This document shows positions 1 to 10,424 of a stretch of 10,424 nt of DNA, one piece after another. A program made the translations under genes and the position numbers. The notes beneath the pieces were generated by a model, which was not told the origin of the DNA, did not search any database, and was given only the letters and a program-made list of their open reading frames with translations. Where the stretch lies: positions 1 to 10,424 of IMG/VR virus record IMGVR_UViG_2778261161_000006; one strand, written 5' to 3'. Source of the DNA: a virus (taxonomy: Duplodnaviria; Heunggongvirae; Uroviricota; Caudoviricetes). Each line of letters begins with the position of its first letter. Position 1 is the stretch's first letter.

Positions 1-165
1 ATCTCTGTTGCCGGGATGCCTTCCAGTACAGGCCAGAAAGAGCCATCATCAAGCCCGAGATCGCGGCGTTCGGTTACCGTGGCATTTGAAGAGAAGTATG
101 GCTCCCAGCTGGAGCTGATATTTCGTTTTATCGATCGCGCACTGGCGATTGGTGTGCTGGCCTGA
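1..165 (+). CDS. 3' end of an unidentified ORF upstream of Q (partial; start lies outside the window)
   Basis: Frame 1 is open from position 1 to a TGA at 163-165, ending 17 nt before the Q start. The translation (…[30 protein letters not shown]) matches nothing I recognise. Supported only by the open frame and position. Confidence 0.25.
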
Positions 166-182
166 TTTTGTGGAGAAAGTTA

Positions 183-566
183 ATGCGTGATATTCAGATG
201 GTTCTTGAACGTTGGGGAGCGTGGGCGGCTAATAATCATGAAGATGTGACCTGGTCGTCCATTGCCGCCGGTTTTAAGGGATTAATTCCTTCAAAAGTAA
301 AATCTCGCCCGCAATGTTGTGACGATGACGCGATGATTATTTGCGGGTGCATGGCCCGTCTGAAAAAGAACAACAGCGATTTGCACGATTTATTAGTAGA
401 TTATTATGTAGTCGGTATGACATTCATGTCACTGGCAGGTAAGCATTGCTGCTCTGATGGTTATATCGGGAAAAGGTTACAGAAGGCTGAGGGCATAATT
501 GAAGGGATGTTAATGGCATTAGATATCCGGTTAGAGATGGATATCGTTGTTAATAACTCTAATTAA
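183..566 (+). CDS. quuD: Late-gene antitermination protein Q (127 aa)
   Basis: ATG at 183 preceded by GGAG at 171-174. Cys-rich putative zinc-binding region (…[18 protein letters not shown]…GKHCCSDGY…). Sits immediately upstream of hairpin terminators and the lysis cassette. Matches my recollection of the DLP12 Q-like protein. Confidence 0.8.
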
Positions 567-599
567 TATGCCAATTGTTTACTGAAAGTTATTAAAAAT

Positions 600-618
600 G
601 GGGCGTTGCAACGCCCCC
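600..618 (-). terminator. GC-rich perfect palindrome GGGGCGTTGCAACGCCCC; candidate intrinsic terminator for the antisense porin transcript (possibly bidirectional)
   Basis: 18-nt perfect palindrome at 600-617. On the minus strand it is followed by ATTTTTAATAAC (complement of 585-599). It lies about 140 nt downstream of the nmpC stop on the minus strand. Confidence 0.4.
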
Positions 619-683
619 AAAAATAAAGGGTAATATATAACAGAAGGTTTATATAGTTAGAAGCAAGGTTGTGCTCCTAAAGG

Positions 684-747
684 AAGTGGCTTGAGGGAGC
701 CACTTATATGTTGGGGAGGCAACGCCTCCCGCAACATATCTTTTTCG
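684..747 (+). terminator. Tandem hairpins downstream of Q; the second is a strong intrinsic terminator (candidate tR' of the Q-controlled late transcript)
   Basis: Hairpin 1: AAGTGGCT (684-691) / AGCCACTT (698-705), loop TGAGGG. Hairpin 2: ATATGTTGGGGAGGC (706-720) / GCCTCCCGCAACATAT (724-739), about 15 bp with a one-nt bulge, followed by C and TTTTT (741-745). The position is analogous to lambda pR'-tR'. Confidence 0.5.
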
Positions 748-755
748 TAATCAGA

Positions 756-1853
756 TTAGAACTGGTAAACCAGACCTACAGCAACGATGTCATCAGTGCT
801 TACACCGAGTGCTTTAGTGAAGTCATTTTTGTCAAGCAGGTTGATTTTGTAATCAACGAAAGTAGACATATTTTTGTTGAAGTAATAGGTTGCACCTACA
901 TCAACATATTTGACTAAGTCCTGATCGCCCCATACTCCAAGATCCTTACCTTTAGATTGCAGGTAAGCAACGGACGGACGCAGACCGAAATCGAACTGAT
1001 ATTGTGCAACAGCTTCGAAGTTTTGAGCTTTATTAGCAACGAAGTGATCAGCAAATACAGTCATATTCTGGGTTTCAGAATAGGTAGTGGCCAGGTAAAT
1101 GTTGTTAGCGTCATATTTCAGACCTGCGGCCCAAACTTCTGCATTTTTACCGGAAGCAAATACTTCAGGAAGAACTTTCCCTGCATTAACTTGAGTGTCG
1201 GTACGATCAGATTTCGCATAAGTTGCACCGATACCGAATCCTTCGTATTCATAGGTAGCAGAGAAACCGAAGCCATCACCGTTACCTTCGGTGTAGTTAT
1301 CGAAATCGCTACGATCGTTTTTGCCTTGGTACTGAGCAGCAAAGTTCAGACCATCAACCAGACCAAAGAAGTCGTTGTTACGATAGGTTGCAACACCAGT
1401 GGTGCGACCAGTCATGAACACATCTGTTTGGGTCCAGGTATCGCCACCGAATTCTGGCAGAACGTCAGTCCACGCACCGATGTCGTATGCTACACCGTAG
1501 TTACGGCCGTAATCGATTGAGCCGTAGTCACCGAATTTCAGGCCTGCAAATGCAAGACGGGTTTTGTCTTTGGAGGAACCTTGAGATTCAGCGCGGTTGC
1601 CTTTGAATTCATATTCCCACTGACCGAAACCAGTCAGCTGATCGTTGATTTGGGTTTCGCCTTTGAAGCCCAGACGAACATAAGTAGTATCACCATCATC
1701 TGCATCGTTAGAGGAAAAGTAGTGCTTGGCATTAACTTTCCCGTACAGATCCAGCTTGTTACTGTCTTTATTATAAATTTCAGCTGCCTGAGCAGACATC
1801 GCCATCAGTACTGATGCAGCTACAGCAGAAATTGCCACTGTTAATTTTTTCAT
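756..1853 (-). CDS. nmpC: Outer-membrane general porin, OmpC/OmpF family (NmpC / phage Lc-type), intact 365 aa
   Basis: N-terminal signal peptide [23 protein letters not shown]|AEIYNKD. Porin-like Gly/Tyr/Asp-rich beta-strand pattern and C-terminal YQF with terminal Phe, typical of outer-membrane beta-barrels. Uninterrupted ORF; no IS sequence inside. Confidence 0.92.
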
Positions 1854-2441
1854 CGTGAGCCCTTTTTTTTGAACTATTATTAAAAAATGATGTCACTGCG
1901 CGATAAATATTCATCTAATCAATGTGATTATTTCAAGATGTAAGTTTTAGTTTCTCATTTAATTTGTGAAGTAGATCTCTATTTTTATCTGAACTTTTTC
2001 TATCGAAACCTATTTATGGCTCTTATTTGAACAAAAATAAATCTATTAGCTAATTTATATTAATGGCTGTTATTTATGGTGGTTCTATAATTCGTCTGTT
2101 TAATTTAAACCGGCTAAAAATAACACTGGAAATTATTTATTGGTTATTTGTTGAGGTTTTCTTATGTATTTGTGGTGATGTTTTGAACACTCGGTAGCAT
2201 TCTCATAAATATCATTCAGTGGTTTACGTACGTAAAAAATTGGTTATGCTGTTAAGAGTGGTTACTTCGTCACACAGCTTAAACCCGCCGTCGAGCTGGT
2301 TTTTCCATTTTTTGAGTCTCGATATTAGCTGATAACTCAATACCTGAGTTATTCACTGACTCGGAGTCAGTTACGTTTCTGCTTTTTTGCGATACGTTGT
2401 ATTCCCTCAATTTACACCCGCTTTGTCTGCGAGGTGGGGTT
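1854..2441. promoter_or_regulatory. AT-rich intergenic region of about 590 bp holding the divergent nmpC promoter/leader and the lysis-cassette upstream region; contains repeated TATTTATGG-type motifs and a 14-bp palindrome
   Basis: Visibly AT-rich. Direct repeats ATGGCTCTTATTT (2016-2028) and ATGGCTGTTATTT (2063-2075). TATTTATGG at 2011 and 2071, and TATTTATTGG near 2134. Perfect palindrome TTTACGTACGTAAA at 2223-2236. Confidence 0.4.
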
Positions 2442-2657
2442 ATGAAATTCATGGATAAGTTAACAACTGGAGTCGCCTATGGCACCTCAGCAGGTAGTGC
2501 CGGTTACTGGTTTTTACAGCTGCTCGATAAAGTCACTCCCTCACAGTGGGCAGCAATAGGTGTGCTGGGTAGCCTGGTATTTGGCCTGCTGACGTACCTG
2601 ACAAACCTTTATTTCAAGATTAAAGAAGATAAGCGCAAGGCTGCGAGAGGTGAATAA
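2442..2657 (+). CDS. essD: Class II holin / pinholin with dual-start motif (phage 21 S-like), 71 aa
   Basis: RBS GAGGTGGGG upstream of ATG 2442. N-terminus MKFMDK has two in-frame Met codons (holin/antiholin dual start). Two hydrophobic segments and a charged C-terminus ([13 protein letters not shown]). Stop overlaps the endolysin start (TAATG). Closely resembles phage 21 S as I recall it. Confidence 0.9.
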
Positions 2658-3154
2658 TGCCTCCATCATTACGAAAAGCCGTTGCTGCTGCTATTGGTGG
2701 CGGAGCAATTGCTATAGCATCAGTGTTAATCACTGGCCCAAGTGGTAACGATGGTCTGGAAGGTGTCAGCTACATACCATACAAAGATATTGTTGGTGTA
2801 TGGACTGTATGTCACGGACACACCGGAAAAGACATCATGCTCGGTAAAACGTATACCAAAGCAGAATGCAAAGCACTCTTGAATAAAGACCTTGCCACTG
2901 TCGCCAGACAAATTAACCCGTATATCAAAGTCGATATACCGGAAACAACGCGCGGCGCTCTTTACTCATTCGTTTACAATGTGGGTGCTGGCAATTTTAG
3001 AACATCGACGCTTCTTCGCAAAATAAACCAGGGCGATATCAAAGGCGCATGTGATCAGCTGCGTCGCTGGACATACGCTGGCGGTAAGCAATGGAAAGGC
3101 CTGATGACTCGTCGTGAGATTGAGCGTGAAGTCTGTTTGTGGGGGCAACAGTGA
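2657..3154 (+). CDS. rrrD: SAR (signal-anchor-release) endolysin, T4-lysozyme-like muramidase, 165 aa
   Basis: N-terminal Gly/Ala-rich hydrophobic segment [20 protein letters not shown] (SAR domain). Catalytic E35, D44, T50 in [16 protein letters not shown]. Start overlaps the holin stop. Typical phage 21 R-type. Confidence 0.92.
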
Positions 3155-3612
3155 GCAGAGTAACCGCGATTATATCCGCTCTGATTATCTGCATCATCGT
3201 CAGCCTGTCATGGGCGGTCAATCATTACCGTGATAACGCAATCGCCTACAAAGCCCAGCGCGACAAAAATGCCAGAGAACTGAAGCTAGCGAACGCGGCA
3301 ATTACTGACATGCAGATGCGTCAGCGTGATGTTGCTGCGCTCGATGCAAAATACACGAAGGAGTTAGCTGATGCGAAAGCTGAAAATGATGCTCTGCGTG
3401 ATGATGTTGCCGCTGGTCGTCGTCGGTTGCACATCAAAGCAGTCTGTCAGTCAGTGCGTGAAGCCACCACGGCCTCCGGCGTGGATAATGCAGCCTCCCC
3501 CCGACTGGCAGACACCGCTGAACGGGATTATTTCACCCTCAGAGAGAGGCTGATCACTATGCAAAAACAACTGGAAGGAACCCAGAAGTATATTAATGAG
3601 CAGTGCAGATAG
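3151..3612 (+). CDS. rzpD: Inner-membrane spanin Rz (i-spanin), lambda-type
   Basis: Protein from [13 protein letters not shown]… is near-identical to lambda Rz as I recall it (N-terminal TMD, coiled-coil periplasmic domain). Likely GTG start at 3151 overlapping the endolysin stop (GTGA), preceded by GGGGG; an alternative GTG at 3139 is possible. Confidence 0.85.
3371..3553 (+). CDS. rzoD: Outer-membrane lipoprotein spanin Rz1 (o-spanin), embedded in the +1 frame of Rz, 60 aa
   Basis: [20 protein letters not shown]… has lipobox LVVVGC and a proline-rich mature region ([16 protein letters not shown]). Fully nested within Rz. Near-identical to lambda Rz1 as recalled. Confidence 0.85.
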
Positions 3613-3643
3613 AGCTGACCATATCGATGGGCAACTCATGCAA

Positions 3644-3937
3644 TTATTTTGAGCAATACACACGCGCTTCCAGCGGAGTATAAATGCCTAAAGTAATAAA
3701 ACCGAGCAATCCATTTACGAATGTTTGCTGGGTTTCTGTTTTAACAACATTTTCTGCGCCGCCACAAATTTTGGCTGCATCGACAGTTTTCTTCTGCCCA
3801 ATTCCAGAAACGAAGAAATGATGGGTGATGGTTTCCTTTGGTGCTACTGCTGTCTGTTTGTTTTGAACAGTAAACGTCTGTTGAGCACATCCTGTAATAA
3901 GCAGGGCCAGCGCAGTAGCGAGTAGCATTTTTTTCAT
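3644..3937 (-). CDS. borD: Bor outer-membrane lipoprotein (serum-resistance, Iss family), 97 aa
   Basis: MKKMLLATALALLITGC… has lipobox LITGC. Same length and near-identical sequence to lambda Bor as recalled. Antisense to the lysis genes, as in lambda. Confidence 0.92.
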   Translation of the reverse strand: MKKMLLATALALLITGCAQQTFTVQNKQTAVAPKETITHHFFVSGIGQKKTVDAAKICGGAENVVKTETQQTFVNGLLGFITLGIYTPLEARVYCSK

Positions 3938-4227
3938 GGTGTTATTCCCGATGCTTTTTGAAGTTCGCAGAATCGTATGTGTAGAAAATTAAACAAACCC
4001 TAAACAATGAGTTGAAATTTCATATTGTTAATATTTATTAATGTATGTCAGGTGCGATGAATCGTCATTGTATTCCCGGATTAACTATGTCCACAGCCCT
4101 GACGGGGAACTTCTCTGCGGGAGTGTCCGGGAATAATTAAAAACGATGCACACAGGGTTTAGCGCGTACACGTATTGCATTATGCCAACGCCCCGGTGCT
4201 GACACGGAAGAAACCGGACGTTATGAT

Positions 4228-4638
4228 TTAGCGTGGAAAGATTTGTGTAGTGTTCTGAATGCTCTCAGTAAATAGTAATGAATTATCAAAGGTATAGTAA
4301 TATCTTTTATGTTCGTGGATATTTGTAACCCATCGGAAAACTCCTGCTTTAGCAAGATTTTCCCTGTATTGCTGAAATGTGATTTCTCTTGATTTCAACC
4401 TATCAAAGGACGTTTCTATAAGATGCGTATTTCTTGAGAATTTAACATTTACAACCTTTTTAAGTCCTTTTATTAACACAGTGTTATCGTTTTCTAACAC
4501 AATGTGAATATTATCTGTGGCTAGATAGTAAATATAATGTGAGACATTGTGACGTTTTAGTTCAGAATAAAACAATTCACAGTTTAAATCTTTTCGCACT
4601 TGATCGAATATTTCTTTAAAAATGGCAACCTGAGCCAT
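4228..4638 (-). CDS. ybcV: Hypothetical protein YbcV (DUF1398-type), 136 aa; AT-rich cargo gene
   Basis: ORF open to 4761 (177 aa), but the internal ATG at 4638 is preceded by GGAAGG about 9 nt upstream and gives the 136-aa form I recall for K-12 YbcV. Strongly AT-rich compared with the flanking lambda-like DNA. Confidence 0.7.
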
Positions 4639-4923
4639 TGGTAAAACCTTCCATGTGATACGAGGGCGCGTAGTTTGCATTATCGTTTTTATCGTTTCAA
4701 TCTGGTCTGACCTCTTTGTGTTTTGTTGATGATTTATGTCAAATATTAGGAATGTTTTCAATTAATAGTATTGGTTGTGTAACAAAGTGCGGTCCTGCTG
4801 GCATTCTGGAGGGAAATACAACCGACAGATGTATGTAAGGCCAACGTGCTCAAATCTTCATACAGAAAGATTTGAAGTAATATTTTAACCGCTAGATGAA
4901 GAGCAAGCGCATGGAGCGACAAA

Positions 4924-5130
4924 ATGAATAAAGAACAATCTGCTGATGATCCCTCCGTGGATCTGATTCGTGTAAAAAATATGCTTAATAGCACCATTTC
5001 TATGAGTTACCCTGATGTTGTAATTGCATGTATAGAACATAAGGTGTCTCTGGAAGCATTCAGGGCAATTGAGGCAGCGTTGGTGAAGCACGATAATAAT
5101 ATGAAGGATTATTCCCTGGTGGTTGACTGA
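4924..5130 (+). CDS. ybcW: Small hypothetical protein YbcW, 68 aa
   Basis: ATG at 4924 preceded by GGAG (4911-4914). 68-aa ORF in the position and of the length I recall for DLP12 ybcW. Divergent from ybcV. No recognisable domain. Confidence 0.6.
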
Positions 5131-5294
5131 TCACCATAACTGCTAATCATTCAAACTACTTAACCTGTGACAGAGCCAACACGCAGTCTGTCACTGTCAG
5201 GAAAGTGGTAAAACTGCAACTCAATTACTGCAATGCCCTCGTAATTAAGTGAATTTACAATATCGTCCTGTTCGGAGGGAAGAACGCGGGATGT

Positions 5295-5489
5295 TCATTC
5301 TTCATCACTTTTAATTGATGTATATGCTCTCTTTTCTGACGTTAGCCTCCGACGGCAGGCTTCAATGACCCAGGCTGAGAAATTCCCGGACCCTTTTTGA
5401 TCAAGAGCGATGTTAATTTGTTCAATCATTTGGTTAGGAAAGCGGATGTTGCGGGTTGTTGTTCTGCGGGTTCTGTTCTTCGTTGACAT
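5295..5489 (-). CDS. ylcI: Small basic protein with predicted ribbon-helix-helix fold (YlcI-like), 64 aa
   Basis: Basic N-terminal tail (KNRTRRTTTR) followed by a beta-strand/helix/helix pattern NIRFPNQMIEQINIALDQKGSGNFSAWVIEACRRRL, typical of Arc/MetJ/CopG regulators. Lies in DNA that matches the lambda right end as I recall it. Confidence 0.55.
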   Translation of the reverse strand: MSTKNRTRRTTTRNIRFPNQMIEQINIALDQKGSGNFSAWVIEACRRRLTSEKRAYTSIKSDEE

Positions 5490-5688
5490 GAGGTTGCCCC
5501 GTATTCAGTGTCGCTGATTTGTATTGTCTGAAGTTGTTTTTACGTTAAGTTGATGCGGATCAATTAATACGATACCTGCGTCATAATTGATTATTTGACG
5601 TGGTTTGATGGCGTAGATGCACGTTGTGACATGTAGATGATAATTATTATCATTTTGCGGGTCCTTTCCGGCGATCCGACAGGTTACG

Positions 5689-5700
5689 GGGCGGCGACCT
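5689..5700 (+). other. cosN: lambda cohesive-end sequence GGGCGGCGACCT (terminase nicking site)
   Basis: Exact 12-nt lambda cohesive-end sequence, flanked on both sides by sequence matching the lambda genome termini as I recall them (…CCGACAGGTTACG | GGGCGGCGACCTCGCGGGTTTTCGCTATTTATGAAAATTTTCCGG…). Confidence 0.9.
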
Positions 5701-5739
5701 CGCGGGTTTTCGCTATTTATGAAAATTTTCCGGTTTAAG

Positions 5740-5856
5740 GCATTTCCGTTCTTCTTCGTCGTAACTTAATGTTTTTATTTAAAATACCCCCTGAAAAGAA
5801 AGGAAACGACAGGTGCTGAAAACGAGCTTTTGGGCCTCTGTCGTTTCCTTTCTCTG
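5740..5856 (+). promoter_or_regulatory. cosB: terminase small-subunit binding region (R3, IHF site I1, R2, R1)
   Basis: R3-like CATTTCCGTTCTTCTTCG (5741-5758). AT-rich I1-like stretch (about 5768-5786). R2 GAAAGGAAACGACAGG (5798-5813) and R1 CTGTCGTTTCCTTTC (5838-5852) form a 15-nt inverted repeat. Positioned between cosN and the Nu1 start, as in lambda. Confidence 0.75.
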
Positions 5857-5877
5857 TTTTTGGCCGTGGAATGAACA

Positions 5878-6423
5878 ATGGAAGTCAACAAAAAGCAGCT
5901 GGCTGACATTTTCGGTGCGAGTATCCGTACCATTCAGAACTGGCAGGAACAGGGAATGCCCGTTCTGCGAGGCGGTGGCAAGGGTAATGAGGTGCTTTAT
6001 GACTCTGCCGCCGTTATAAGATGGTATGCCGAAAGGGATGCTGAAATTGAGAACGAAAAGCTGCGCCGGGAAGTTGAAGAACTGCGGCAGGCCAGCGAGA
6101 CAGATCTCCAGCCAGGGACTATTGAGTACGAACGCCATCGACTTACGCGTGCGCAGGCCGACGCACAGGAGTTGAAAAATGCCAGAGACTCCGCTGAAGT
6201 GGTGGAAACCGCATTCTGTACTTTCGTGCTGTCGCGGATCGCAGGTGAAATTGCCAGTATTCTCGACGGGATCCCCCTGTCGGTGCAGCGGCGTTTTCCG
6301 GAACTGGAAAACCGACATGTTGATTTCCTGAAACGGGATATCATCAAAGCCATGAACAAAGCAGCCGCGCTGGATGAACTGATACCGGGGTTGCTGAGTG
6401 AATATATCGAACAGTCAGGTTAA
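5878..6423 (+). CDS. nohD: Terminase small subunit Nu1, 181 aa
   Basis: MEVNKKQLADIFGASIRTIQNWQEQGMPVLRGGGKGNEV… (winged helix-turn-helix N-terminus) is near-identical to lambda Nu1 as recalled. 3' end overlaps the A start, as in lambda. Confidence 0.93.
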   Translation: MEVNKKQLADIFGASIRTIQNWQEQGMPVLRGGGKGNEVLYDSAAVIRWYAERDAEIENEKLRREVEELRQASETDLQPGTIEYERHRLTRAQADAQELKNARDSAEVVETAFCTFVLSRIAGEIASILDGIPLSVQRRFPELENRHVDFLKRDIIKAMNKAAALDELIPGLLSEYIEQSG

Positions 6424-7501
6424 CAGGCTGCGGCATTTTGTCCGCGCCGGGCTTCGCTCACTGTTCAGGCCGGAGCCACAGACCGCCGTTGAATGGGCGG
6501 ATGCTAATTACTATCTCCCGAAAGAATCCGCATACCAGGAAGGGCGCTGGGAAACACTGCCCTTTCAGCGGGCCATCATGAATGCGATGGGCAGCGACTA
6601 CATCCGTGAGGTGAATGTGGTGAAGTCTGCCCGTGTCGGTTATTCCAAAATGCTGCTGGGTGTTTATGCCTACTTTATAGAGCATAAGCAGCGCAACACA
6701 CTTATCTGGTTGCCGACGGATGGTGATGCCGAGAACTTTATGAAAACCCACGTTGAGCCGACCATCCGCGATATTCCGTCGCTGCTGGCGCTGGCTCCGT
6801 GGTATGGCAAAAAGCACCGGGATAACACGCTCACTATGAAGCGTTTTTCCAATGGTCGTGGCTTCTGGTGCCTGGGCGGTAAAGCGGCAAAAAACTACCG
6901 TGAAAAGTCGGTGGATGTGGCGGGTTATGATGAACTTGCTGCCTTTGATGAGGATATTGAACAGGAAGGCTCTCCGACGTTCCTTGGCGACAAACGTATT
7001 GAAGGCTCGGTCTGGCCAAAGTCCATCCGTGGCTCCACGCCCAAAGTGAGAGGCACCTGCCAGATTGAGCGTGCAGCCAGTGAATCCCCGCATTTTATGC
7101 GTTTTCATGTTGCCTGCCCGCACTGCGGGGAGGAGCAGTATCTTAAATTTGGCGACAAAGAGACGCCGTTTGGCCTCAAATGGACGCCGGATGACCCCTC
7201 CAGCGTGTTTTATCTCTGCGAGCATAATGCCTGCGTCATCCGCCAGCAGGAGCTGGACTTTACTGATGCCCGTTATATCTGCGAAAAGACCGGGATCTGG
7301 ACCCGTGATGGCATTCTCTGGTTTTCGTCATCCGGTGTGACCGTGGAAACGGCCCGCCGCATTCTGGCAGCTGCACCACAGAGTGCACAGGCGCGCAGTG
7401 ACACTGCGCTGGATCGTCTGATGCAGGGGGCACCGGCACCGCTGGCTGCAGGTAACCCGGCATCTGATGCCGTTAACGATTTGCTGAACACACCAGTGTA
7501 A
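6398..7501 (+). pseudogene. A: Truncated terminase large subunit A (N-terminal ~313 aa) fused to ~54 codons from the 3' end of the gene preceding D (C/Nu3 region); deletion remnant
   Basis: MNISNSQVNRLRHFVRAGLRSLF… through …GILWFSSSG matches lambda gpA N-terminal half as recalled. Lambda A is about 641 aa, whereas this ORF is 367 aa. After the junction near 7336 the sequence (VTVETARRILAAAPQ…NDLLNTPV) is not gpA and runs straight into the D RBS. Confidence 0.85.
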
Positions 7502-7510
7502 GGGATGTTT

Positions 7511-7843
7511 ATGACGAGCAAAGAAACCTTTACCCATTACCAGCCGCTGGGCAACAGTGACCCGGCACATACGGCAACCGCGCCCGGCGGATTGAGTGCG
7601 AAAGCGCCTACAATGACCCCGCTGATGCTGGACACCTCCACCCGTAAGCTGGTTGTGTGGGATGGCACCACCGACGGTGCTGCCGTTGGCATTCTGGCGG
7701 TTGCTGCTGACCAGACCAGCACCACGCTGACGTTCTACAAGTCCGGCACGTTCCGTTATGAGGATGTGCTCTGGCCGGAGGCTGCCAGCGACGAGACGAA
7801 AAAGCGGACCGCGTTTGCCGGAACGGCAATCAGCATCGTTTAA
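7511..7843 (+). CDS. D: Head decoration protein D, intact, 110 aa
   Basis: [27 protein letters not shown]…TAISIV is near-identical to lambda gpD as recalled. RBS AAGGGA 5 nt upstream of ATG 7511. Confidence 0.92.
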
Positions 7844-7860
7844 CCTTACCCTTCATCACT

Positions 7861-7887
7861 AAAGGCCGCCTGTGCGGCTTTTTTTAC
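7861..7887 (+). terminator. Hairpin plus T-tract in the D-E intergenic region (intrinsic terminator/attenuator-like)
   Basis: AAAGGCCGCCTGTGCGGCTTTTTTT: GCCGC/GCGGC stem with flanking A/T pairing, followed by 7 T. Confidence 0.5.
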
Positions 7888-7898
7888 GGGATTTTTTT

Positions 7899-8405
7899 AT
7901 GTCGATGTACACAACCGCCCAGCTGCTGGCGGCAAATGAGAAGAAATTTAAGTTTGATCCGCTGTTTCTGCGTCTCTTTTTCCGTGAGAGCTATCCCTTC
8001 ACCACGGAGAAAGTCTATCTCTCACAAATTCCGGGACTGGTAAACATGGCGCTGTACGTTTCGCCGATTGTTTCCGGTGAGGTTATCCGCTCCCGTGGCG
8101 GCTCCACCTCTGAATTTACACCGGGATATGTCAAGCCGAAGCATGAGGTGAATCCGCAGATGACCCTGCGTCGCCTGCCGGATGAAGATCCACAGAATCT
8201 GGCGGACCCGGCTTACCGCCGCCGTCGCATCATCCTGCAGAACATGCGAGACGAAGAGCTGGCCATTGCTCAGGTCGAAGAGATGCAGGCCGTTTCTGCC
8301 GTGCTTAAGGGCAAATATACCATGACCGGTGAAGCCTTCGATCCGGTTGAAGTGGATAGAGGTCTTTTTAGAAGAAGGTCTCTCCGTTACTGCACCTGCT
8401 TCTGA
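7899..8405 (+). pseudogene. E: Truncated major capsid protein E (first ~153 codons of 341) followed by 15 out-of-context codons and a stop; deletion remnant
   Basis: MSMYTTAQLLAANEKKFKFDPLFLRLFFRESYPFTTEKVYLSQIPGLVNMALYV…EAFDPVEVD matches the lambda gpE N-terminus as recalled, then diverges at 8358 ([15 protein letters not shown]). Confidence 0.88.
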
Positions 8406-9840
8406 TTATATTGTTGCTGAAACGACTTATAAATTTGGCGCAACTGATCCTTATTCTGAATCAGTTGCGGTAAATTTAATTTTAGATTTTAAACAAGGTA
8501 ATGGATTTTATAGTTCGTATCCTGTTTTGAGTAAGTCAGACATTAGCGGGAATAAGATTTACGCTAATGATGAAGTTATTGTCCGTAGTCAGAACGCGTT
8601 AAGGATGATTGCAGGTGATTACGGTGTCATATGGCGAAATGATGGAGCAAATACTTACTTGCTCATGACTGATAAAGGCGACCAGTACGGTGGCTGGAAC
8701 GGTCTTCGACCATTTGCAGTAAATAACGCAACAGGTGAAGTGACGATCAATACATCACTTAATTCTCCTAAGGGGATTAAGGGAAATTCTGATACAGCTA
8801 CGAAACTTCAGACAGCAATAAAAATATCTGGTGTTTCGTTTGATGGTTCTACTGATATCACTTTAACCGCTGCGCATGTTGCTGCTTTTGCCAGAAGAGC
8901 AACGGATACGTATGCCGATGCGGATGGGGGCGTTCCCTGGAATGCCGAATCAGGCGCTTACAATGTCACTCGCTCTGGCGACAGCTATATTCTGGTTAAC
9001 TTCTATACCGGAGTCGGAAGTTGCCGGACCTTGCAGATGAAGGCGCATTACAGAAATGGTGGTCTGTTCTACCGTTCTTCAAGAGACGGTTATGGTTTTG
9101 AGGATGACTGGGCAGAAGTTTATACCTCGAAAAATCTTCCACCAGAAAGCTACCCAGTCGGCGCACCAATCCCGTGGCCATCAGATACCGTTCCGTCTGG
9201 TTATGCCCTGATGCAGGGGCAGACTTTTGACAAATCTGCCTACCCGAAACTTGCAGTCGCTTATCCGTCAGGCGTGATCCCTGATATGCGTGGCTGGACG
9301 ATTAAGGGCAAGCCCGCCAGTGGTCGTGCCGTATTGTCTCAGGAACAGGACGGCATTAAATCGCACACTCACAGCGCCAGCGCATCCAGTACGGATTTGG
9401 GTACGAAAACCACATCGTCGTTTGATTACGGCACTAAATCCACGAATAACACCGGGGCGCATACGCACAGTCTGAGCGGCTCTACAAGCTCGGCCGGAGC
9501 ACACTCGCACGTTGATGGTCGCAGGTTTAATACAAGCACTTTTAAAGACACCTATCAGTATGGTTCTACAGCTGTCGGAAGTAACTCATACCAGGTACAA
9601 GGGGCGGTTGGTCTGGGCATTGGCACGATGGCGAATACGAACTCTGCTGGCGCGCATACCCACTCACTGTCCGGCACTGCTGCAAGCGCAGGTGCACACG
9701 CACATACTGTCGGTATTGGTGCTCATACGCACTCCGTTGCGATTGGCTCACATGGACACACCATCACCGTTAACGCTGCTGGTAACGCGGAAAACACCGT
9801 CAAAAACATCGCATTTAACTATATTGTGAGGCTTGCATAA
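8359..9840 (+). pseudogene. stf: 5'-truncated side tail fibre gene (stf-like): non-lambda AT-rich central domain plus lambda Stf / T4 gp37-like C-terminal His-box domain
   Basis: Continuous frame from the junction to the stop, with no credible start of its own (the GTG at 8329 lies inside the E remnant in another frame). C-terminal ~230 aa ([71 protein letters not shown]…[11 protein letters not shown]) match lambda Stf as recalled. Confidence 0.8.
9361..9770 (+). repeat. Internal repeated His-box (HxH) motifs of the tail-fibre distal domain
   Basis: Repeated GAHTHSLSG(S/T)…AGAH(S/A)[18 protein letters not shown] and [11 protein letters not shown] segments within the stf-like ORF. Confidence 0.6.
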
Positions 9841-10424
9841 TGGCATTCAGAATGAGTGAACAAGCACGGACCATAAAAATTTATAATCTGCTGGCCGGAA
9901 CTAATGAATTTATTGGTGAAGGTGATGCATATATTCCGCCTCATACAGGTCTGCCAGCAAACAGTACCGATATTGCACCACCAGATATTCCTGCTGGCTT
10001 TGTGGCTGTTTTCAACAGTGATGAGGCATCGTGGCATCTCGTTGAAGACCATCGGGGTAAAACGGTTTATGACGTAGCGTCAGGGGACGCGTTATTTATT
10101 TCTGAACTCGGTCCGTTACCGGAAAATGTTACCTGGTTATCGCCGGAAGGGGAGTTTCAGAAGTGGAACGGCACAGCCTGGGTGAAAGATGCAGAAGCAG
10201 AAAAACTGTTCCGGATCCGGGAGGCGGAAGAAACAAAAAACAGCCTGATGCAGGTAGCCAGTGAGCATATTGCGCCACTTCAGGATGCTGTAGATCTGGA
10301 AATCGCAACGGAGGAAGAAACCTCATTGCTGGAAGCCTGGAAAAAGTATCGGGTGTTGCTGAACCGTGTTGATACATCAACTGCACCTGATATTGAGTGG
10401 CCTACGAACCCTGTCAGGGAGTAA
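9840..10424 (+). CDS. tfa: Tail fibre assembly protein Tfa, intact, 194 aa
   Basis: [54 protein letters not shown]… is near-identical to lambda Tfa as recalled. Start overlaps the stf stop (TAATG). Stop at 10422-10424. Confidence 0.9.

Follow-up and report, generated by a model that had tools for sequence, protein, structure and literature searches.

We analysed a stretch of 10,424 nucleotides from a tailed phage (Caudoviricetes; IMG/VR record IMGVR_UViG_2778261161_000006, positions 1 to 10,424), hereafter the window, and in particular the segment at positions 4228-5130, which carries the two divergent genes ybcV and ybcW. We found that this segment is the long-annotated, nonessential right end of phage lambda kept in a defective E. 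coli prophage, and the locus is in this sense already known. We consider it likely that this lambda right end, lying in a DLP12-type prophage, is built of independent single-gene cassettes, one carrying ybcV and the other ybcW, with the separate roles discussed below.

Results

Identity of the segment with the right end of phage lambda

Positions 3600-5688 of the window match phage lambda (NC_001416, 46415-48502) with 98.5% identity over 2,089 bp, to the last base before cosN. At the same place lambda is annotated with lambdap78 (NP_597781), which is ybcV, and lambdap79 (NP_597782), which is ybcW, in the same order, on the same strands and in the same synteny (Rz, bor, p78, p79, cos, Nu1). The proteins are 98.5% (YbcV) and 100% (YbcW) identical to those of lambda, and the names ybcV and ybcW agree with the RefSeq annotation of 100%-identical Escherichia coli loci. 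In IMG/VR, 80 of the 80 near-identical ybcV loci are consistent with the order Rz-bor-ybcV-ybcW-ylcI-Nu1 as far as their contigs extend. By its open reading frame (ORF) map, its Pfam matches and a megablast comparison with complete E. coli genomes, the window is a remnant of a DLP12-type lambdoid prophage. The two lambda genes are thus orthologues placed between bor and cos in the same position and orientation as here, the difference being that lambda is a viable phage whereas here the genes sit in a deleted prophage.

A first-pass annotation of the window had described an AT-rich cargo pair as an insertion separating bor from a lambda-like right end. The two divergent ORFs are present where it placed them (minus strand 4228-4761, a maximal ORF of 177 aa, and ybcW on the plus strand at 4924-5130, 68 aa), and the segment is AT-rich, with a GC content of 35.8% vs 46.5% for the window. 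The insertion did not hold, as the whole bor-ybcV-ybcW-ylcI-cos stretch is lambda itself, 98.5% identical. A GC content of 35.8% or less is found in just 0.7% of all 903-bp windows, the minimum being 35.4% for the one starting at 4211; the AT-richness comes chiefly from the coding sequence of ybcV (31.6% GC, with 39.6% for ybcW). The segment 4228-5130 therefore differs in base composition from the flanking phage DNA, which is one of the marks of lambdoid morons. Both genes are under purifying selection, with ratios of nonsynonymous to synonymous substitution (dN/dS) of 0.10-0.36 for ybcV and 0.19-0.44 for diverged ybcW pairs, and so are real genes and not chance ORFs.

Separability of ybcV and ybcW

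Annotated regions and a local tblastn survey gave five types of arrangement at this locus. Lambda and DLP12 carry bor, ybcV, ybcW and ylcI, while Tritos carries gnsB, ybcV and ybcW. In Qin, PhiR42_1, E. albertii and others, gnsB or Rz is followed by a ydfO-like gene directly preceded by ynfO, and there is no ybcW; ev099 has a KilA-N gene, a ybcV-like gene and ynfO, with neither ybcW nor bor; PhiR63_1 and mEp460 have gnsB, ybcW and ylcI and no ybcV. Identities are 77-80% for the ydfO-like genes of Qin, PhiR42_1 and ev099 and 79-81% for ybcW of PhiR63_1 and mEp460. The related phages are therefore polymorphic for presence or absence at the module junction, another mark of lambdoid morons. The slot of bor varies too, being taken in other lambdoids by cspI-ynfN-gnsB or by a KilA-N gene. 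The lysis-to-cos interval is, as had been proposed, a site of cargo exchange, where ybcV/ydfO and ybcW alternate as well as the modules at the place of bor.

The boundaries of the cassettes were drawn from a three-way DNA alignment of the window, Qin and PhiR63_1. Positions 5348-5700, the cos side with ylcI codons 1-48, are common to the three sequences at 95-100%, and these codons lie within the cos-side block common to all the types compared. As a block, the ybcW cassette (Table 1) is either present or lacking: PhiR63_1 shares it at 72-91% between about 4760 and 5347, with only 45% in 4718-4759, and Qin has about 75 unrelated bp in its place. On the other side, PhiR63_1 lacks 4228-4717, which the window has in common with Qin at 81-86%.

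The same separability was found on a larger scale. Among 5,426 complete E. coli genomes, a ybcV-like gene is present in 3,011, ybcW in 1,986 and the adjacent pair in 1,402; in at least 1,600 genomes the ybcV-like gene has no ybcW next to it, and in about 580 it is ybcW that has no ybcV next to it. Of the phage collection, 43 records contain a YbcV homologue and 40 a YbcW homologue, all of them lambdoid Escherichia phages, and the two sets differ. Since phages, as well as hundreds to thousands of E. coli genomes, carry one of the genes alone, their co-occurrence is not that of an obligate two-gene system, and the conservation as a unit on which the first-pass annotation had staked its pair is largely lacking. 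That annotation had also recognised nothing defence-specific in the segment. In agreement, a search of both proteins against the defence hidden Markov models of PADLOC-DB gave no credible match, the best being REase_II (E=2.7e-4, 18 bits, partial) and Mem_04 (E=0.017), neither of them convincing.

YbcV and the DUF1398 family

YbcV is a member of the DUF1398/YdfO-like family, matching PF07166 with 156.8 bits (cut-off 22) over model positions 1-119 of 119. We take the ATG at 4638 as its start, which has a GGAAGG Shine-Dalgarno motif 8 nt upstream and is also the start in the RefSeq annotation of E. coli; the N-termini of cleanly called homologues (P0069 and enterobacterial rows with 31-37% identity) agree with this methionine. 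This 136-aa start differs from the lambda RefSeq entry, where lambdap78 is an over-long ORF of 177 aa (534 bp, NC_001416 47042-47575) labelled 'head protein'. The extension at 4639-4761 is probably untranslated, to judge from its position over a conserved non-coding leader and then over non-homologous DNA.

YbcV is 80% identical to YdfO, whose structure was solved by nuclear magnetic resonance (NMR; PDB 2HH8), and has the same fold as this solved member. An AlphaFold2 (AF2) model built on an 18-sequence alignment, with a predicted local distance difference test (pLDDT) score of 88, contains an internal duplication, (helix-helix-strand-strand-strand)x2. In structural comparison the fold is an orphan, with no enzyme relatives and no capsid-like matches. 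Eleven positions are invariant (R15, L27, Y35, T41, N43, A96, G99, V100, W103, R112 and Y114), and none of them is of the typical catalytic residue types (His, Asp, Glu, Cys, Ser). The protein is basic, with an isoelectric point (pI) of 9.2 and a mass of about 16 kDa, and no membrane segment or signal peptide was found in it (maximum 19-residue Kyte-Doolittle value 0.43).

A representative search and a profile search for homologues returned a small enterobacterial set only; the large protein searches were uninformative on diversity, as they gave hundreds of error-laden copies on European Nucleotide Archive (ENA) contigs of about 3.5 kb. In Klebsiella and Pseudocitrobacter, the distant homologues (25-38% identity) occur singly and in non-phage surroundings. 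The third paralogue of the family in E. coli, ycgX (45% identity), is nearly universal in E. coli and stands alone next to bluR, outside any recognisable prophage. In Qin, ydfO comes directly after ynfO without ybcW, whereas ybcV has ybcW beside it here. As regards function, lambdap78 was scored nonessential by CRISPR interference (CRISPRi), and overexpression of ybcV from the ASKA library gives viable cells with altered glycogen accumulation. Overexpression of YdfO is said to raise resistance to oxidative stress, as relayed second-hand in PMC4077768, and a 2025 in-silico survey of uncharacterised K-12 proteins left ycgX without an assignment.

The leader and transcriptional control of ybcV

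The 79 nt upstream of the ybcV start form a leader that is conserved with the DUF1398 gene. In the comparison with ycgX it is 66% identical vs 72% for the start of the coding region, and upstream of 4717 the homology ends abruptly. It contains an invariant CAGACCAGATTGAA, which is kept upstream of ycgX as in the prophage copies; its occurrence in the leaders of all three paralogues suggests one shared regulatory input. Because the leader is kept in ydfO and in ycgX, the DUF1398 gene can be regarded as an autonomous one-gene module with its own control region. Nucleotides 6-79 of the intergenic region match the annotated 3' end of ynfO in Qin-type prophages, and in Qin the ynfO reading frame runs into the leader, with its stop codon within TTGAAG. 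The possibility that the leader is a relic of the ynfO 3' end was dropped, since the leader is conserved upstream of ycgX, where there is no ynfO.

Within the leader we propose a candidate sigma-70 promoter of ybcV (Table 1). A consensus scan gave a weak terminator-like site at 4171-4146, and an Rfam search of the segment gave no RNA family. The spacer between bor and ybcV also holds, at 4071-4135, a perfect 10-nt inverted repeat (TATTCCCGGA / TCCGGGAATA) with 45 nt between the arms, near the boundary of the ybcV module.

Diverse reports describe the regulation of the two genes. A PdhR box from genomic SELEX was published for the ybcV/ybcW intergenic region, and in a pdhR mutant the mRNA falls 10-fold for ybcV and 8.9-fold for ybcW (PMC7660256). 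Hha binds the region and raises ybcW expression 17-fold in biofilm cells, the transcripts of ybcW and ylcI overlap convergently in K-12, and ybcVW mRNA rises after induction of a DNase toxin. Overexpression of T4 MotB gave an induction of more than 1000-fold, measured in BL21(DE3); we did not use it as evidence of H-NS silencing, as the near-identical copy in lambda DE3 and prophage late transcription confound it. In the main text of Wang et al. (2010), ybcV and ybcW go unmentioned.

YbcW and the Vulcan system

YbcW, which is small and acidic, matched no family of Pfam or NCBIfam; it matches phrog_657, labelled as of unknown function. Its variation sits mostly in residues 1-22, and residues 23-56 are nearly invariant. 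The spacer between ybcW and ylcI does not fold better than shuffled sequences (z=-0.33).

The late transcript of lambda starts at pR', passes through the lysis genes and runs across cos to Nu1. In the window, late transcripts that have passed ybcW and cos enter the morphogenesis operon at nohD, its first gene. A CRISPRi study scored lambdap79 as 'essential', and its own table lists the gene as nonessential in earlier literature; the score is likely due to a polar block of the late transcript.

A September 2026 preprint (bioRxiv 10.64898/2026.09.04.749371) describes lambdap79 as the trigger of Vulcan, a NIR-NADase abortive-infection system. Co-expression of lambdap79 and Vulcan was toxic, and seven of the seven lambda-vir escapers from Vulcan had lost lambdap79 through recombination with the Qin prophage of MG1655 (bioRxiv 10.64898/2026.09.04.749371). 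The cassette map explains this escape route, since Qin has high homology on both sides and no ybcW between them; the homology available for recombination is 95-99% on the cos/ylcI side and 81-86% on the ybcV/ydfO side. YbcW of the window is identical to this phage trigger of abortive infection, and the loss by recombination with Qin fits the cassette boundaries; a difference is that Vulcan or another defence gene is absent from the window. The DLP12 prophage of MG1655 has an identical ybcW, and Vulcan is tolerated there until infection or until lambdap79 is induced, from which we infer that the resident ybcW is essentially silent in uninduced cells.

Other features of the window and lambda DNA in public records

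The coordinates of the features are collected in Table 1. The gene order of the window is quuD, an intact nmpC-type porin gene, essD, rrrD, rzpD/rzoD, bor, ybcV, ybcW, ylcI, cos, nohD, a truncated terminase gene and tail-fibre genes.

Table 1. Features of the window at and around the ybcV and ybcW cassettes.
Feature	Position	Strand	Description	Basis
bor	3644-3937	-	Serum-resistance lipoprotein; left neighbour module of ybcV	Pfam Lambda_Bor E=1.4e-30; RefSeq annotation
ybcV (lambdap78)	4228-4638	-	DUF1398/YdfO-like, 136 aa	RefSeq call
Leader of the DUF1398 module	4639-4717	-	Conserved, 79 nt	81% identity with the leader of ydfO, 66% with that of ycgX
5' extension of the maximal ORF	4639-4761	-	41 codons, added in the 177-aa lambdap78 call	GeneMark
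Candidate sigma-70 promoter of ybcV	-35 at 4700-4695; -10 at 4677-4672	-	TTGAAA, 17-nt spacer, CAAACT, then Shine-Dalgarno GGAAGG	Inferred
PdhR box	4700-4716		ATCTGGTCTGACCTCTT with palindrome GGTCnGACC; abuts the candidate -35	Genomic SELEX box; single exact occurrence in the window
ybcW cassette	4718-5347		About 630 bp: upstream region, ybcW, 3' spacer and last 17 ylcI codons	Three-way alignment
Perfect 9-bp hairpin	4850-4875	+	TCAAATCTT / AAGATTTGA; 49 nt upstream of the ybcW start	Repeat search
ybcW (lambdap79)	4924-5130	+ (late-operon strand)	68 aa, pI 4.9	Protein 100% identical to that of lambda
ylcI	5295-5489	-	YlcI/YnfO family (DUF3950), 64 aa, pI 10.5; convergent with ybcW	PF13132 E=5e-20; NF041551
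cosN nick	5688-5689		Lambda right end at 5688; left end (GGGCGGCGACCT) from 5689	Lambda match ends at record base 48502 (query base 2089); sequence read
nohD	5878-6423	+	Nu1 terminase small subunit	Pfam Phage_Nu1 E=2e-101

The nmpC-type porin gene (365 aa, minus strand) lies between quuD and the lysis genes (window 756-2396), and the spacer after it, at 1854-2396, has 31.9% GC, about as AT-rich as the coding sequence of ybcV, and constitutes a second cargo site in the window. The morphogenesis region (6398-9840) is extensively deleted. The terminase large-subunit ORF ends after 367 aa, the intact relative being of 1,926 bp, and is directly followed by a head-decoration-like ORF (7505-7843), a capsid-like fragment (7872-8405) and a tail-fibre-like ORF of 503 aa (8329-9840). 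An Rfam match to IS009 (RF02111; 229.5 bits, E=5e-57) was found at 10183-10381 on the plus strand, within a tail-fibre-assembly-like ORF (9840-10424).

We also came across contaminating lambda DNA in a large number of public records that have nothing to do with lambda. Brevibacillus, Arcanobacterium, Xanthomonas, Synechocystis, Acinetobacter and S. aureus have contigs or 'plasmids' of about 3.5 kb which, like hundreds of error-laden ENA contigs, are probably the 3.6-kb lambda control strand of Oxford Nanopore; the contigs of about 48.4 kb found in Pseudomonas, Shewanella and Paenibacillus resemble a lambda spike-in. The 'Campylobacter phage CJLB-4' (MW057783, 48,361 bp) is 98.7% identical to the lambda-type query, window 3600-5627.

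Discussion

The locus is no new kind of system, and both of its genes were already known; what the comparison adds is their organisation as two separable cassettes. The ybcV cassette (about 4200-4717) would be an autonomous DUF1398 module with its own leader and candidate promoter, antisense to the late operon, and may be expressed outside the lytic programme, as bor is. Its product may be a soluble, non-enzymatic binding or adaptor protein that adjusts host physiology. The ybcW cassette, on the strand of the late transcript, would yield a small acidic helical protein made during lytic growth. This protein is, going by the literature, dispensable for plaques and, according to the 2026 preprint, activates Vulcan; its native role may be to bind a host or defence protein.

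The genes bor and lom are lambdoid morons, that is, independently expressed, nonessential genes of lysogenic conversion. With them ybcV shares that it is nonessential and AT-rich, runs antisense to the late operon, differs in occurrence among related phages and sits at the lysis-to-cos exchange site. In contrast, ybcV is without an established host-benefit phenotype, its promoter is a candidate and its terminator a weak terminator-like site. In this sense, the suggestion of cargo that is expressed independently and benefits the host is still plausible for ybcV, given its conserved leader and its orientation against the late operon; it does not suit ybcW, which lies on the late-operon strand and, following the 2026 preprint, acts in lytic infection.

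Several observations weigh against this reading of independent cassettes with separate roles. The candidate promoter of ybcV agrees with the consensus at only 8 of 12 positions and did not come up in the promoter scan, and the scan for promoters and terminators gave a number of sites not above that of shuffled sequence. The AF2 model of YbcW has three predicted helices with a pLDDT of 62, and its structural matches are generic helices. The Vulcan result comes from a single preprint, and the binding roles of both proteins are deduced from the absence of catalytic features. In addition, about two thirds of the genomes with ybcW have the two genes side by side, and they may be co-regulated through the 285-bp intergenic region that they share, as their mRNAs in K-12 respond jointly to PdhR and to the DNase toxin.

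These last points are also what would speak for ybcV and ybcW as one functional unit, be it a defence, toxin-antitoxin or regulator-effector system, with a shared divergent promoter region. The genes are adjacent and divergent around a common 285-bp control region, both mRNAs fall about 10-fold in the pdhR mutant (PMC7660256) and both rise with the DNase toxin and with MotB, the pair is kept in 1,402 genomes, and Tritos retains it beside another left neighbour. However, the single-gene state is found in the functional phages ev099, PhiR42_1, PhiR63_1 and mEp460 and, judged by adjacency, in the at least 1,600 (ybcV-like gene) and about 580 (ybcW) E. coli genomes given above; the paralogues and distant homologues of YbcV stand alone, PADLOC gave no significant matches, and lambda escapers that lose lambdap79 and gain ydfO are viable (bioRxiv 10.64898/2026.09.04.749371). 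The separability of the genes largely refutes such a unit, which we regard as very unlikely. A somewhat better, still improbable, candidate for a partner of the DUF1398 gene is ylcI/ynfO, the two forming a ribbon-helix-helix regulator-effector or type II toxin-antitoxin-like module that the ybcW cassette would have split in lambda and DLP12. In Qin-type loci a gap of about 60 bp separates ynfO from the co-oriented ydfO downstream, YlcI is a small, strongly basic protein, its best hhalign match sets residues 12-33 on the strand-helix segment of Arc (residues 9-30), and the database protein P0244 reads as a YnfO-YbcV fusion. On the other hand, the Arc match is not significant (E=0.074, probability 0.8%), and the sequence search of the PDB returned no ribbon-helix-helix structure. 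The leader of ydfO is also kept at ycgX, a gene with no ynfO beside it, and the DUF1398 gene thus has a control region of its own into which the ynfO ORF happens to extend; ycgX and the homologues of Klebsiella and Pseudocitrobacter lack a ylcI/ynfO neighbour, so the constant accompaniment of a toxin by its antitoxin is not seen. A strong toxin is also less likely, given that YdfO could be produced for NMR and that cells overexpressing ybcV from the ASKA library are viable. The assignment of YlcI as an Arc/Mnt-type ribbon-helix-helix protein was not adopted, as its alignment on the N-terminal strand-helix segment of Arc did not reach significance. As for P0244 (177 aa), in which a YlcI/YnfO-like N-terminus is joined to a YbcV-like C-terminus, it may represent either a real fusion or an artefact, by frameshift or assembly, of a Qin-type ynfO-ydfO locus.

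The two remaining explanations have still less in their favour. That the segment is decaying, functionless DNA could be thought from its surroundings, a heavily deleted prophage with a truncated terminase gene and missing head genes, but it is hardly probable: neither ORF is disrupted, both match their counterparts in viable lambda at 98.5-100% and evolve under purifying selection, thousands of genomes carry the genes, their transcripts are regulated, and lambdap79 triggers a defence system. That ybcV encodes a structural protein of the virion or the envelope is held up by database labels only ('head protein' in phrog_413 and RefSeq, 'putative envelope protein' in GenBank) and deserves next to no credence, since the gene, being on the minus strand, runs opposite to the late morphogenesis transcript, its product has no signal peptide or hydrophobic segment, it is nonessential for plaque formation of lambda according to the literature, its paralogues occupy non-phage chromosomal contexts, and capsid-like matches to its structure number none. 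The 'head protein' and 'envelope protein' labels are unsupported and should not be propagated.

The organisation in independent single-gene cassettes has practical consequences. As the two cassettes are separable, the genes should be treated singly in experiments. The cassette boundaries also provide a mechanism for the loss of lambdap79 from lambda through recombination with Qin, by which the phage escapes Vulcan. Both genes are widespread, a ybcV-like gene being present in over half and ybcW in over a third of the complete E. coli genomes, and they are among the few genes of lambda and of the 'y-ome' of E. coli K-12 that are still without an assigned function. A bolder proposal, which we put forward as a speculation more likely to fail than to hold, is that YbcW would be a host-takeover or anti-defence effector, with Vulcan guarding its target or sensing YbcW itself, and that the DUF1398 proteins would be nucleoid-silenced, PdhR-tuned modulators that bind ligands or proteins through a hitherto unclassified platform fold, have been spread by lambdoid phages and were on at least one occasion domesticated, as ycgX. 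If this were true, a place in the arms race between phage and host would be found for the last genes of lambda without an assigned function.

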